In this document: positions 18,850 to 24,952 of the stretch, one piece after another
Layout: each line of letters starts with the position of its first letter
Position numbering within the stretch: the first letter of the stretch is position 1
Source: a virus
Taxonomy: Duplodnaviria; Heunggongvirae; Uroviricota; Caudoviricetes
IMG/VR virus record: IMGVR_UViG_3300028797_000098
Location: 1-38,320 of that record
Direction: 5' to 3' (one strand)
Length of the DNA: 38,320 nt
Translations under genes and position numbers: made by a program
The notes under the pieces: model-generated
What the model was told of the DNA's origin: nothing
Seen by the model: only the letters and a program-made list of their open reading frames with translations
Databases searched by the model: none

Positions 18850-18878
18850 GTTGCCATTTTAGGTATTTTTGCTATATT
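18850..18878 (+). promoter_or_regulatory. GTTGCCA/TGCTATATT promoter (16-nt spacer), ATG 6 nt downstream
   Basis: GTTGCCA ttttaggtattttt GC TATATT tctcgc ATG. Confidence 0.65.
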
Positions 18879-18884
18879 TCTCGC

Positions 18885-20573
18885 ATGGATCTCCAAAAGT
18901 TGTTTGATGAATTATCGCATAAAGACTCTGCCGCATCTGAGAACTCGCGTGTTGATACTAATGGCGCGGCTGTTGATGCGATTTCCGCCATTGAAGTTGA
19001 ACCTAAGGATGATACTGTTAACGAATGCATGACGGAAGATCCGCCTCCGCCTCCCCCTAAGGGAGCTCCGCTTGCCGAAAAGGTATTTGAACCGGCACCT
19101 GATATTTTTAATTTGTTTGATTCTGAAACCAAAGAAATCAAGGAGCCGGAAGAAACATCGAAAGAATCTGCACCGAAGCAGAAACTATTGACCAAGGATG
19201 ATTTGACCGAGGACCAGAAGTCGGCTTTGGAATATATCAATTCCTTCATGGAGAGCGATTGCCGCCAGATGGTGCTTTGTGGTCCGGCTGGTACTGGTAA
19301 GACCTCCTTGGTGAATGTTCTTCTTGATGAATTGGACAAGAAAAACATATCGTACGTGTGTACTGCACCGACCAACAAGGCTGTTGAAGTCATTGCAAAG
19401 CGCACTAATCGTCAGTTTGACCGTACCATTTATTCTCTTTGTGGATTGAAGCTTGTTGACCTTGATGACAAGGAACCGTATCTGGAACGGAATGGCGAAT
19501 CCGCACTTGGTGAATATGACATTATTATAATTGACGAAGCTTCAATGGCTGGAACTGAACTGTTGCGGAATATTGAAGCTAACCTGGTCGAATTTAGTTA
19601 CATAAAGGTTATCTATGTGGGTGATCCGTGTCAGATTCCTGCTGTGGAAGACAGCAACCGTGGACTGTTGCAGTCTCCTGTTTTCAATCTGAAATATGGC
19701 TTCATGCTTAGCAAGGTGATGCGTACGGCACTTGACAACCCGATTATGCGCACTGTCACCATGATGCGCCAGCATATTACCCAGCCAGGCGATTATTTTG
19801 ACCATGTTACTGAGGTTGGTGAATCTGGCGGTATCTACTTCTACACTGAACGCAGTGAGTTTATGTCGAAAGTGTACGAATACTTCACTTCCGATGCTTA
19901 CAAGGAAGATACCGACTACGCGCTTGCGATTGCGTATCGCAATATTTCCGTGGATGCGCTCAATAAATGTATTCGCCGTCATAGATATCCTGGTGTAGAA
20001 GCTGAATATGTAGAAGGTGAAGAATTGCGCATCTCCCGGGGTTACCGCAGGATGAACAAGACTGACAGGCGTGGGAGGGTTCGATATGATGAAGAGCAGG
20101 TTTACAGCATGGAGGAACGTGTAAAGGTCCTCAATGTGATAGACATGCCTGATGGAGATCCGGCATATCATATTGGGTGCTACAAGTTGACTGTGGTCAA
20201 TTTCCGTGCACTTCCTGGACATCGCAAGCAATGTACGGCCTACGTAGTTAAGCCATCCGAACAGGAAAAACTGAATAAGTTGAAGGCTGACCTTGCTGCC
20301 GAATGCCGTGAACGAGCCAAAGAACTTGGCCAGATGGGGCGACATAAGTACACCAAGAAAGAAGCTTGGGAGCCATACAACAAGCTTAAAAATAACTTTA
20401 TGTATGTTGGCTATATCTATGCCATGACAGTATATAAGGCACAAGGTACTACTGTACAAAATGCCTTTGTGGTTGAACGTGACATGAATGTATGCTCTGA
20501 CGTTATTTTGCGCAACAAATTGAAATACACTGCATTTACGCGTGCAGCCAAGGAATTGCACGTTCTCGACTAG
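18885..20573 (+). CDS. dda: SF1B DNA helicase (Dda/RecD2-like) with an acidic Pro-rich N-terminal extension
   Basis: GPAGTGKT, APTNKA, IIIIDEASM, VGDPCQIP, YAMTVYKAQG and YTAFTRA. Confidence 0.9.
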   Translation: MDLQKLFDELSHKDSAASENSRVDTNGAAVDAISAIEVEPKDDTVNECMTEDPPPPPPKGAPLAEKVFEPAPDIFNLFDSETKEIKEPEETSKESAPKQKLLTKDDLTEDQKSALEYINSFMESDCRQMVLCGPAGTGKTSLVNVLLDELDKKNISYVCTAPTNKAVEVIAKRTNRQFDRTIYSLCGLKLVDLDDKEPYLERNGESALGEYDIIIIDEASMAGTELLRNIEANLVEFSYIKVIYVGDPCQIPAVEDSNRGLLQSPVFNLKYGFMLSKVMRTALDNPIMRTVTMMRQHITQPGDYFDHVTEVGESGGIYFYTERSEFMSKVYEYFTSDAYKEDTDYALAIAYRNISVDALNKCIRRHRYPGVEAEYVEGEELRISRGYRRMNKTDRRGRVRYDEEQVYSMEERVKVLNVIDMPDGDPAYHIGCYKLTVVNFRALPGHRKQCTAYVVKPSEQEKLNKLKADLAAECRERAKELGQMGRHKYTKKEAWEPYNKLKNNFMYVGYIYAMTVYKAQGTTVQNAFVVERDMNVCSDVILRNKLKYTAFTRAAKELHVLD

Positions 20574-21732: not shown

Positions 21733-21762
21733 TGATATCATAGCAATTTTGTTGCCATAAGG

Positions 21763-21794
21763 ACCGCCGGGGCCTCAGGGTTCCGGCGGTTTTG
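21763..21794 (+). terminator. Intrinsic terminator abutting the next promoter
   Basis: ACCGCCGG...CCGGCGGT followed by TTTG. Confidence 0.75.
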
Positions 21795-21823
21795 TTGCCA
21801 CCCGAATCATAAAATGCTACATT
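21794..21823 (+). promoter_or_regulatory. GTTGCCA-17-TACATT promoter, ATG 6 nt downstream
   Basis: TTGCCA 21795-21800, TACATT 21818-21823, ATG 21830. Confidence 0.7.
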
Positions 21824-21829
21824 TCCACC

Positions 21830-21970
21830 ATGGAATACCAAAAGCTATTATCATTCATCCACCCATCGGATAAAGAAACCGCCCAACGGTGGGCAAAGAT
21901 TTTGCTCAATTCCTGCTATGACAGGATTGTAGCCAGTTCTAACTTTAAACTCTACGAGGTAAAGAAATAA
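21830..21970 (+). CDS. 46-aa predicted leaderless ORF directly upstream of infC
   Basis: MEYQKLLSFIHPSDKETAQRWAKILLNSCYDRIVASSNFKLYEVKK; TAA ends 1 nt before the infC ATG; below the ORF-track size cut-off. Confidence 0.55.
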   Translation: MEYQKLLSFIHPSDKETAQRWAKILLNSCYDRIVASSNFKLYEVKK

Positions 21971-21971
21971 T

Positions 21972-22652
21972 ATGGGATTCAAGAACAATTTCTACATCTC
22001 CGCATCGACAATCATGCTGATTGGCGAAGATGGAAAACCTATGGGCACCATGAACCCAGGCAAGGCTAAGGCGATTGCCAATGACCGAGACCTTCCATTG
22101 GTTTGTGTCAATCCGTCGGGAAATCCGCCTGTGTACCGTCTTGGTAACCCGCCGAAGGATGGTATCACTACGGCAACGGTTCGTTTGATGGGTGAAAACG
22201 GCGAACAGCTTGGCGTGGTGACAAGTGCGGAAGCTCGCAAGATTGCCGAGGAACGCGACCTTGACATCATCGTTGTAGCTGTCAACCAGGACCCGCAGGT
22301 TGCACGCCTTGGCGACCGTGGCAAGTATGAATACGAGCAGAAGAAAAAGAAGCGTGAAATGGAAAAGAAGAACCGTGCAGCAGCCAAGGCTACCGAAGTC
22401 AAGGATCTCCGTTTCCCGAGCAACGGTGGTGATGCTGACCGTGAACGCATCTTGAAGCAGGGTGATGAATTCATGGAACAGGGTCATCCGGTAAACTTCT
22501 GCATTCGATTCCCGGGACGTAAGGTTTCTCACTGCGACGATGTGATTGAGCGTACCAAGGAAGAAATGAATACGACTTTGACTCACGGTGTAATTTCGAA
22601 GATTAGCCGCGCCGGCAACAGTTTCACCATCTCCTGCATGCCAAAGAAATGA
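21972..22652 (+). CDS. infC: Translation initiation factor IF3 with two tandem N-terminal domains
   Basis: IMLIGEDGKPMG...DLPLVCVNPSGNPPVYRL, then VRLMGENGEQLGVV...DLDIIVVAVNQDPQVARLGDRGKYEYEQKKK, then IF3-C-like VKDLRF...EFMEQGHPVNFCIRFPGR. Confidence 0.88.
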   Translation: MGFKNNFYISASTIMLIGEDGKPMGTMNPGKAKAIANDRDLPLVCVNPSGNPPVYRLGNPPKDGITTATVRLMGENGEQLGVVTSAEARKIAEERDLDIIVVAVNQDPQVARLGDRGKYEYEQKKKKREMEKKNRAAAKATEVKDLRFPSNGGDADRERILKQGDEFMEQGHPVNFCIRFPGRKVSHCDDVIERTKEEMNTTLTHGVISKISRAGNSFTISCMPKK

Positions 22653-23401
22653 TTATTGAAGCTACAAACCGTTTTGTCTTTACAGAAGTTGCCCGCATGC
22701 TGAAGGAAGAGTGCGGTGGCCGGCCTGAATTTGCCGACACTGTATTCATCCTCGGTCATGTAGATTCTCGTTGTACCCTGTCAGGTATGCGCAAGAAGTA
22801 TCCTAACAAGAAACTCGTTGTATACCAGTTGGAACAGATGTATGACGGATGCAAGTATGCCAATCCGCATGTATTCGAATGGCTTCGTGGTGCAGACGAG
22901 GTATGGGACTATGACTTGGACAATATCGACTGGCTTGCCAAGAAGGGCATCCGTACTTCATTCCATCCGATGCATTACGCAAGCACTTTGCGCGACGTAC
23001 CAAGCGTGGAAAAGGATGTCGATGTCCTGTTCTATGGCTTTCTGACCGAGCGTAGGTCCAAGCTGCTTACTCAGCTTGCCAATGCCGGCTGCAACAAGTG
23101 GGCAACGACAATCACCATGGGCATTTCCGGCGAGAACCTGGCCAAATGGATCGGACGCTCCAAGATTATCCTGAACATCCACGCATACGATAACAACAAC
23201 CGTCAGGAACAGGTGCGCATGTTCTACCCGGTAATCAACGGGGCATGTGTCGTTTCCGAGCAGAGTGCCCGTAACTACCTTGACGGCTGTATTACCGAAT
23301 GTCCGTTGAAGTACCTCCCGGAAACCATAGACAACATCCTCAAGAATGACATGTGGAAGAAGCTCGGTGATAACGCTGTCTATAACTTCATGAGGCGATA
23401 A
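22649..23401 (+). CDS. GT-B-type glycosyltransferase-like protein (CgeB/GT1_2-like C-terminal domain)
   Basis: DVDVLFYG...ERRSKLL...RSKIILNIH...EQVRMFYPVINGACVVSE. Confidence 0.75.
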   Translation: MIIEATNRFVFTEVARMLKEECGGRPEFADTVFILGHVDSRCTLSGMRKKYPNKKLVVYQLEQMYDGCKYANPHVFEWLRGADEVWDYDLDNIDWLAKKGIRTSFHPMHYASTLRDVPSVEKDVDVLFYGFLTERRSKLLTQLANAGCNKWATTITMGISGENLAKWIGRSKIILNIHAYDNNNRQEQVRMFYPVINGACVVSEQSARNYLDGCITECPLKYLPETIDNILKNDMWKKLGDNAVYNFMRR

Positions 23402-23692
23402 TCAACTACCCACGGGTATAAAGACCCGTGAGTTTGGGGTAACTCAGACTCATAGTTGATTAGACTCAGTGAAGCAGAGAAATCTGCTGAACTACGTTAG
23501 GAAGGTCATAACACCTACGGATGTACGGTCAAGTCTGTAGCTCTGTTGAATGTCATTAAACAGTCCTGATGGGTAGGGACAGTGTGGCGTTCATGACAAG
23601 CCTTCCTAACATTGTCGATGACCACCCACAGGGAGTAATCCCTGCATTACCTATTAAGTTAGGTTAAAAAACAACGAAAGGATAACGACTAG
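23381..23692 (+). ncRNA. IscB omegaRNA (HEARO-type scaffold from 23401; guide from the 5' flank)
   Basis: ATCAACTA (23401-23408) pairs with TAGTTGAT (23453-23460); hairpin CACGGGT-ataaag-ACCCGTG; conserved-looking AGACTCAG, CTACGTT, ACACCTACGGATG, GTAGCTCTG and AACATTGTCGA blocks. Confidence 0.9.
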
Positions 23693-24951
23693 ATGGTCTA
23701 TGTACTGAACAAATACGGCAACCCTCTGATGCCTACCACTAGGCACGGCAAGGTCCGTCGTCTGCTCAGGAAAGGTCTCGCGGTTGTTGTCGATTACCGT
23801 CCATTCACCATTCAGCTTGCTTACGACACGCCGAACGGCGTGCAGGAGGTCAGTCTAGGAGTAGACGCGGGTACGAAGCATGTAGGTTTCTCCGCCACTA
23901 CCAAGAAGAAGGTACTTTTCGAAGCAGAATTACTGCTGAGGTCGGATATCGTGGAGAAGCTATCCACGCGAAGGGAGTTCCGTCGGACCAGAAGGAACAG
24001 GAAAACTCGCTACCGCAAGTCCAGGTTCCTGAACAGGACCAAGAAGCCAGGGTGGATTGCGCCTTCCGTACGGCAGAAGGTGGATTCCCATATATACTGG
24101 ATTTCGAAGATATGTAAGATTTTACCTATCGGGGAGATAACGGTGGAGACGGCACAGTTTGATATTCAACTGTTGAAGGCCCAGGAACAGTGCCTTCCGT
24201 TGCCGCATGGAACCGACTACCAGAAGGGTGAACAGCTCGGATTTTCTAACGTAAGGGAATACGTGTTGTTCCGGGATGGGCATAAATGCCAGTGCTGTAA
24301 GGGCAAGTCCAAGGACAGGAAGCTGCGGGTCCACCATATCGAAAGCAGAAAGACAGGTGGAGATGCACCTAACAACCTCATCACGTTGTGTTCGGAATGC
24401 CATGCTAAGTATCATAGGGGCGAAATTAAGCTGCCTAAGAATGTCAGCCGCGGGGCTTCCTTGAAGGATGCTGCCGTAATGGGCATCATGCGGAAGTCGG
24501 TGTTCGGTCAACTGGATAAACTGTTCGGTGATGCAGTTCCTTGCCACGAGACGTACGGCTACATCACCAAGTATGCCCGCACCAAGGCAGGCCTTCCGAA
24601 GGACCATACCATAGACGCCCGTTGCATCAGTGGCAATACGGGTGCCGAGTCCGACGGGCATTACTGGATTATCCGCAAGTTGCGTGCCAACAACAGGCAG
24701 CTGCACAAGGCATCCATACTCAAGGGATGCATTCGGAAGAACAACCAGGCACCTCGGGAGGTACATGGATATAGACTGATGGATTATGTTGTTTATGCCG
24801 AACGACCTTGCTTCGTGAATGGCCGCAGGCAGTCGGGATACTTCTCTCTATCGGATATTTCCGGACATGTCCTTGCCGGTTCGGTGAACTATAAGCACCT
24901 TAACTTAATTAACCACAACAACACTAATATAATGGAAACGAGAGAACTATA
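23401..24951 (+). mobile_element. IscB/omegaRNA element (IS200/IS605 superfamily, no tnpA)
   Basis: Left boundary at the ATCAAC scaffold start. Removing 23401-24951 restores a TAATG stop/start overlap between the flanking genes. Confidence 0.8.
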
Positions 24952-24952
24952 A
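23693..24952 (+). CDS. iscB: IscB RNA-guided endonuclease
   Basis: PLMP N-terminus, LGVDAG (RuvC-I), Arg-rich bridge helix RREFRRTRRNRKTRYR, ITVETAQFD (RuvC-II), CQCC...VHHIESRKTGG...NLITLCSECH (HNH) and DHTIDARCI (RuvC-III). Confidence 0.97.
   Translation: MVYVLNKYGNPLMPTTRHGKVRRLLRKGLAVVVDYRPFTIQLAYDTPNGVQEVSLGVDAGTKHVGFSATTKKKVLFEAELLLRSDIVEKLSTRREFRRTRRNRKTRYRKSRFLNRTKKPGWIAPSVRQKVDSHIYWISKICKILPIGEITVETAQFDIQLLKAQEQCLPLPHGTDYQKGEQLGFSNVREYVLFRDGHKCQCCKGKSKDRKLRVHHIESRKTGGDAPNNLITLCSECHAKYHRGEIKLPKNVSRGASLKDAAVMGIMRKSVFGQLDKLFGDAVPCHETYGYITKYARTKAGLPKDHTIDARCISGNTGAESDGHYWIIRKLRANNRQLHKASILKGCIRKNNQAPREVHGYRLMDYVVYAERPCFVNGRRQSGYFSLSDISGHVLAGSVNYKHLNLINHNNTNIMETREL

Follow-up and report, generated by a model that had tools for sequence, protein, structure and literature searches.

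What a phage gains from an initiation factor 3 (IF3) that carries its N-terminal domain twice is the question raised by this locus. IF3 is the main gatekeeper of bacterial start-site choice. To our knowledge, the copies found in phages have been catalogued and never characterised. The window, the whole stretch of 38,320 nucleotides that was analysed, holds an IF3 gene in a short operon, the first cistron of which is predicted to be leaderless. A first-pass annotation of the window had suggested that the duplicated domain biases ribosomes towards leaderless phage mRNAs, and this suggestion appears to be partly supported. Phage IF3 genes are already known and the doubled N domain (N-N-C) is a variant of them. 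Newly established are the equivalence of one loop residue to the R131P substitution of Escherichia coli, the lability of this position, the single origin of the extra domain in a domain tree, the selection acting on it and a quantified link to a class of leaderless promoters.

The window belongs to an IMG/VR virus record of 203,111 bp with a completeness of ~52% (CheckV), so the source is a huge phage. Most of the runs holding window DNA are labelled as bovine-gut metagenomes. The nearest cellular IF3s come from mixed phyla and give no signal of the host.

Architecture of the phage IF3

The IF3 homologue comprises 226 residues in the order N1-N2-linker-C and is encoded at 21972..22652 on the + strand, as are all features of the operon. 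The assignment is based on the open reading frame, Pfam, alignment and an AlphaFold2 model. The start codon is ATG, with GAGG 12 nt upstream. Pfam matches IF3_N in two stretches of the protein. When scored alone on the DNA, the extra domain N1 (21990..22145) reaches 45.9 bits and the canonical N2 (22161..22361), which runs into the linker helix, 78.2 bits, both above the Pfam cut-off of 26.9 bits for IF3_N. The two consecutive IF3-N-like units of the first-pass annotation are thus confirmed by the domain scan that it had proposed. N1 and N2 share 37% identity over 51 residues (E 7e-15). N1 corresponds to the globular β-β-α-β-β part alone, without the linker helix. The net charge of this globular part is -1 to +3; the corresponding mean over 140 ordinary N-terminal domains is -3.0.

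The AlphaFold2 model (mean pLDDT 82, input alignment of 48 sequences) contains the β-β-α-β-β arrangement twice, at residues 14–57 and 69–114, followed by a long helix (116–140) and a β-α-β-α-β-β C domain (144–224). The N1 region has a pLDDT of 83–88. Residues 61–226 superpose on the complete solved IF3 5lmn_X with a Z of 13.3 over 162 residues, and residues 62–132 superpose on the solved N-terminal domain 1tif with a Z of 9.0. In the alignment, N2 matches 5lmn_X from residue 10. Matches to residues 61–226 fill the list of the structural search; the assignment of N1 is therefore based on the sequence and on the secondary structure of the model. Tyr121 of N2 occupies the column of E. coli Tyr75 and is conserved.

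The Lys/Arg-rich linker (residues 116–140, 22317..22391) forms a helix in the model, in agreement with the Lys-rich linker noted before. Compared to cellular IF3 it contains a family-specific insertion of four residues (RAAAKA, alignment A1). The C domain (22392..22649) had been described as diverged. By sequence it scores 26.5 bits, which is below the Pfam cut-off of 34.8 bits for IF3_C, yet it superposes on the solved C-terminal domain 1tig with a Z of 13.4 and an rmsd of 1.5 (85 residues). In the standard IF3 architecture, one N and one C domain are joined by a basic helical linker; in the phage protein the linker helix is present and the N domains number two.

The match of N2, linker and C domain to solved bacterial IF3 (InfC; PF05198 + PF00707; 5LMN chain X) spans the entire length of the latter, with an E of 1e-22. 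The phage protein differs by the additional N-terminal IF3_N, by the linker that is four residues longer and by the substitutions R99P, K110I, R116E and R131P (E. coli numbering) in the C domain. Its gene lacks the infC-rpmI-rplT context. It starts with ATG and not with AUU, the start codon of E. coli infC. The IF3 of huge and jumbo phages (Al-Shayeb et al. 2020, PMC7162821; Iyer et al. 2021, PMC7824862) is likewise phage-borne, and the genomes that carry it also exceed 200 kb and encode tRNAs and other translation genes, whereas no domain duplication is described in those reports.

Distribution, origin and selection of the doubled N domain

In a collection of 5.8 billion proteins, ~22 full-length relatives with 226–254 residues are found, down to an identity of 39%. 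The contigs carrying them reach 250 kb, and the family is known from metagenomes only. All family traits are present in the window protein: two IF3_N domains and a C domain, a length within 226–255 residues, the RAAAKA-type linker and the synteny with a PIF1-like helicase. Inspection of the readable loci showed a PIF1/RecD-like helicase near IF3 in most of them, sometimes with an RNA ligase in between. The cellular neighbours rpmI-rplT adjoin IF3 in none of the loci read. ATG is the start codon in 11/11 family loci read (ten N-N-C loci and the single-N locus L038).

An exhaustive HMMER pass over 1.84 billion protein representatives yielded 6,271 IF3 hits, the best 150 of which were checked by domain HMM. 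Among these 150, P0095 aside, no protein outside the N-N-C family has two N domains. The N-N-C form is also absent from the GenBank phage hits examined, from 21 other phage IF3 loci of IMG/VR (single N each) and from the best 80 IF3 loci of 185,579 prokaryote species, where every match has ≤164 residues. The survey of the architecture envisaged in the first-pass annotation thus gives no N-N-C protein in the cellular genomes searched. Duplication of the N domain of IF3 was not encountered in the literature searched. P0095, a cellular-type IF3 of 254 residues, was rejected as a second double-N protein. It contains an exact internal repeat of 47 residues, which covers the last part of the N domain together with the linker. 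This repeat probably stems from misassembly or from a tandem duplication of very recent date.

The domain tree unites all N1 domains in a single clade (support 98/93), within which the subclades mirror those of N2. The cellular N domains form a separate clade. This topology corresponds to a single duplication early in the phage IF3 lineage. Thus, a lineage of huge rumen/gut phages acquired the extra N domain by one early event. Single-N members of the same lineage exist (P0040-43), and these have the long RAAAKA linker, too.

For the five closest genomes dN/dS is 0.04–0.10 in N1, 0.07–0.16 in N2 and 0.02–0.11 in the C domain. Purifying selection on N1 is as strong as on N2 and C, and a dN/dS this low identifies N1 as a working part of the protein.

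The IF3 operon and its promoter class

The unit upstream of the operon ends in an intrinsic terminator, a hairpin followed by a U-run (21760..21796; -29 kcal/mol, z -4.8 against shuffles). The tail of the terminator (to 21796) overlaps the -35 element of the next promoter (21794..21823), which was located by a consensus scan and combines GTTGCCA with the extended -10 element TGCTACATT. In detail, TTGCCA (21795–21800), a spacer of 17 nt and TGCTACATT (21815–21823) are present, the latter with the hexamer TACATT (21818–21823) and a TG before the hexamer. This cassette of hairpin and promoter is kept in the related loci L003 and L010.

The first cistron (21830..21970) encodes 46 residues. Its ATG lies precisely 6 nt past the -10 hexamer, with a pyrimidine at -1; from this promoter geometry the gene is predicted to be leaderless. 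The stop codon is followed by 1 nt and then by the ATG of IF3 at 21972, exactly as had been noted in the first pass. IF3 is the second cistron and not itself leaderless. The dN/dS of the 46-aa gene is 0.07–0.15 (17 synonymous versus 10 non-synonymous changes against L003); therefore it is genuinely coding. Its product has no Pfam match. The predicted complex of IF3 with the 46-aa protein has a score of 0.00 and a partner pLDDT of 40, which speaks neither for nor against binding. Rfam finds no known RNA in the leader region of IF3.

The operon is completed by a gene of 250 residues (22649..23401), the start of which overlaps the stop codon of IF3 (ATGA). It has a weak match to Glyco_trans_1_2 (E 0.004). 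A gene of 250–251 residues directly follows IF3 in L003, L032 and L033, too. Metatranscriptome contigs span the IF3 gene and the junction of the 46-aa gene and IF3, which is weak evidence of transcription. As the four bovine-gut RNA runs are assembled contigs, in which 5' ends cannot show, the transcription start is inferred.

The 46-aa gene is intact only in the window, L003 and L010, which also share the junction of stop codon, 1 nt and ATG and the GAGG upstream of it; the gene is absent from the other loci read. In six of the latter (L004, L007, L009, L032, L033 and L036) IF3 has its own leader with a Shine-Dalgarno (SD) sequence. In L037 it is located ~10 nt past the helicase gene, with AAGGAAA upstream. 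An ordinary leader and SD separate the promoter from IF3 in the relatives that share 83% and 78% identity, and most deeper clades are arranged likewise. Since the 46-aa gene is limited to the nearest relatives, the leaderless coupling was added recently and does not characterise the family as a whole.

The promoter of the operon belongs to a class that recurs throughout the genome. Of 56 TGCTAYAWW boxes, 22 have an ATG exactly 6 nt downstream (+7; binomial P ~3e-20). Each of these 22 opens a reading frame of at least 46 codons and has a pyrimidine at -1 (22/22 for both). The offset profile of this genome has a sharp peak at 6 (26 sites, compared to ~3 at other offsets). At least 22 first cistrons in this promoter class start at the predicted +1, which gives substance to the leaderless gene set proposed in the first-pass annotation, as a set of predicted starts. 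The geometry of box and ATG matches a sigma-70-type start at +1, as predicted from the sequence. A peak at 6–7 is also present in near-clade N-N-C loci and is slight in more distant ones. Bacterial infC loci show no such peak, and neither do the loci of other phages that carry IF3. Many of the other TGCTAYAWW boxes precede leaders with a GGAGG-type SD. Thus, the host appears to be SD-using and leaderlessness is specific to the class.

A TGCTACATT box at G000:C1:129153-129170 is followed after 6 nt by a GTG that opens a reading frame of 169 residues. This GTG is a candidate leaderless non-AUG start, of the kind that is disfavoured by ordinary IF3. The PIF1/RecD-like helicase (18870–20573 in the window) starts 6–7 nt after a -10 box in most clades; this layout was seen in the window, L003, L010, L033, L007, L004 and L037. 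The leaderless-type layout of the helicase predates the one found in the IF3 operon.

The start-codon loop and start-site choice

The first-pass annotation had pointed out the motif FPGR in place of the usual FRGR. Residues 180–183 (FPGR) indeed align with FRGR of Thermus thermophilus IF3 and of another solved bacterial IF3 (5me0); Pro181 therefore corresponds to Arg131 of the E. coli motif 129-RFRGR-133. The complete phage motif is RFPGR (residues 179–183, codon CCG of Pro181 at 22512–22514), in which the equivalents of R129 and R133 are kept. The equivalents of Tyr75, D106, G132, R133 and H137 are retained in the phage IF3. Replacement of K110 by I or L and of R99 by P extends across most of the phage IF3 family.

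Position 131 is R or K in 139/151 other IF3 representatives and in 21/21 other phage IF3 loci of IMG/VR. In the superfamily of the window protein it is hypervariable. Pro is present in the window clade and in P0023, Phe in P0038, Ser in P0016, Asn in P0041, Thr in P0043, Lys in P0042 and Arg in P0019-22, P0037, P0039 and P0040.

The role of this residue is known from a 2025 study with an E. coli reconstituted system (PMC11775629). R131 touches the start codon at +2, +3 and +4. Excess wild-type E. coli IF3 inhibits leaderless translation in that system and does not inhibit SD-led translation, and the inhibition is relieved when RFRGR is replaced by the mitochondrial KKGK or when the mitochondrial terminal extensions are added. 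IF3 bound to the 30S subunit abolishes leaderless initiation, while IF3 bound to the 70S ribosome promotes it (PMC11775629). The same publication cites R131P as a mutation by which initiation is promoted on leaderless mRNAs, from non-AUG codons and with initiator tRNAs that lack the three G-C pairs (3GC), and Mycoplasma IF3 as having P, F or Y naturally at position 131 (PMC11775629). The superfamily shows P and F at this same position of RFRGR. Unlike the E. coli mutant, the phage protein is natural, carries an extra domain and is known here from its sequence. The original papers on R131P and on Mycoplasma IF3 are O'Connor 2001 and Ayyub 2018. The proposed bias towards leaderless phage mRNAs gains support from the position of Pro181 at R131, since R131P is cited as favouring leaderless initiation (PMC11775629).

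A second comparison is offered by mammalian mitochondrial IF3 (IF3mt), which has KKGK for RFRGR and N- and C-terminal extensions (6NEQ, 6RW4) and serves leaderless mRNAs. In both proteins the start-codon loop is altered and the N-terminal side is enlarged. The model of the phage IF3 superposes on the IF3mt structures with Z values of 11.3–11.6, whereas the sequences are only distantly related (E ~1e-5). Furthermore, the phage protein is extended by an entire second fold of the IF3_N type and not by a short stretch. The resemblance is a functional analogy and does not reflect shared descent of the extension.

The best explanation, to which we assign a probability of roughly 0.5, is that the gene product is a working IF3 specific to the phage and folded into three domains and that this factor relaxes start-site checks, favouring the leaderless first cistrons of the phage. 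The phage IF3 would bind to the ribosomes of the host, either together with the host's own IF3 or as a substitute for it. Its start-site-inspecting loop may be blunted as in R131P, and the leaderless penalty imposed by ordinary IF3 would thereby be lifted. Initiation at non-AUG codons or with atypical tRNAs might be eased as well. The net effect would be that first cistrons of phage operons are favoured. In the window, L003 and L010, where IF3 is coupled to the leaderless 46-aa gene, the output of IF3 would track the capacity for leaderless initiation.

For N1 an anchoring role can be envisaged. In solved complexes the NTD of IF3 has two alternative sites, on the platform near uS11 and at the elbow of the initiator tRNA (PMC5037330). 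The less acidic N1 could provide a second anchoring contact on the ribosome. In this speculative role it would compensate for the basic residues that the C domain has lost, in the manner of the terminal extensions of mitochondrial IF3.

With its conserved second N domain, its hypervariable fidelity-setting residue and its many predicted leaderless operons, the N-N-C family is a natural experiment. If the shift to leaderless or non-canonical starts is true, it would show concretely how a phage takes over translation, would parallel mitochondrial IF3 by convergence and might provide a tool for orthogonal translation. The leaderless bias is directly testable in a reconstituted translation system.

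The variability of position 131 bears on a simpler explanation, in which the phage copy adds to the IF3 of the infected cell or takes its place, without any leaderless bias. Such a supplement could act in subunit recycling and anti-association or confer resistance to attack on IF3 by host or defence systems, with N1 adding stability or affinity. This explanation is possible and clearly weaker than that of relaxed start-site checks. It agrees with the wide occurrence of IF3 of ordinary architecture with a basic residue 131 in huge phages, with the FRGR retained in several N-N-C clades and with the conserved equivalents of Tyr75, D106, R133 and H137. It does not account for a non-basic residue 131 in many lineages of this superfamily only, for the family-wide replacement of K110 and R99 or for the peak of leaderless-type promoters, which accompanies this phage group but no other phages with IF3. 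Leaderless-type helicase promoters are present in FPGR, FSGR and FRGR clades alike. As N-N-C clades with FRGR (e.g. L037) have such promoters, Pro181 is not required for leaderless usage.

The loss of basic C-domain residues (R99P, K110I, R116E and R131P) together with the extra N domain is also what would be expected of a dominant-negative factor. In this case, the tandem N domains would hold the host 30S subunit and the weak C domain would fail in SD-led initiation, while leaderless messages initiated by 70S ribosomes would escape. The opposite effects of 30S- and 70S-bound IF3 on leaderless initiation (PMC11775629) fit such a shut-off. However, the phage's own SD-led genes behind the same promoter class would be blocked, too, and in the nearest relatives all four parts of the protein, including the C domain, are under strong purifying selection, as for an active factor. 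A shut-off of this kind is therefore unlikely.

Equally doubtful is an extended form of the preferred reading, in which the leaderless promoter class, the N-N-C IF3 with its blunted loop and an initiator-like tRNA-Met of the phage, with two of the three G-C pairs of the anticodon stem, co-evolved into a semi-orthogonal initiation pathway. The extra N domain would keep IF3 on 70S ribosomes or at the tRNA elbow. Host ribosomes would be routed to phage messages, with the output of IF3 tied to leaderless initiation via the 46-aa gene.

That N1 lies outside the mature protein, as an annotation artefact, as a relic that is not translated or because translation begins internally, for instance at Met73, is suggested by nothing more than the presence of internal Met codons and is effectively excluded by the selection on N1, besides which N1 is conserved down to 39% identity in a single clade of its own, directly follows an SD and start codon in other clades and is modelled with high pLDDT.

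Further translation genes and a neighbouring element

Ribosomal protein S21, IF1 and peptide deformylase have no match in the 203-kb record (~52% complete). ARAGORN predicts a tmRNA (G000:C1:135997-136357, tag ANNAYACRMAA) and 41 tRNAs in the same genome, which add to the translation toolkit of the phage. A tRNA-Met(CAT) at G000:C1:45019-45094 (L034) has an initiator-like acceptor stem and T-loop, with U1-A72, C11-G24 and two of the three G-C pairs of the anticodon stem (A31-U39 at the remaining position). According to PMC11775629, IF3 of the R131P type reportedly tolerates initiator tRNAs without the three G-C pairs. Among E. coli tRNA genes, the best matches of this tRNA are plasmid tRNA-Asn (78%), which is uninformative on its class. 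The other CAT tRNA (138350–138424) matches tRNA-Ile.

A HEARO RNA (Rfam RF02033, 137 bits) is located at 23401–23629 of the window, directly 5' of an IscB-like reading frame of 419 residues (23693–24952) with a PLMP motif, the RuvC-like motif DAGTKHVG and an HNH motif. RNA and reading frame (23401–24952) are inserted immediately after the IF3 operon. Contigs of the bovine-gut metatranscriptomes are stacked on the HEARO RNA with a depth in the hundreds.
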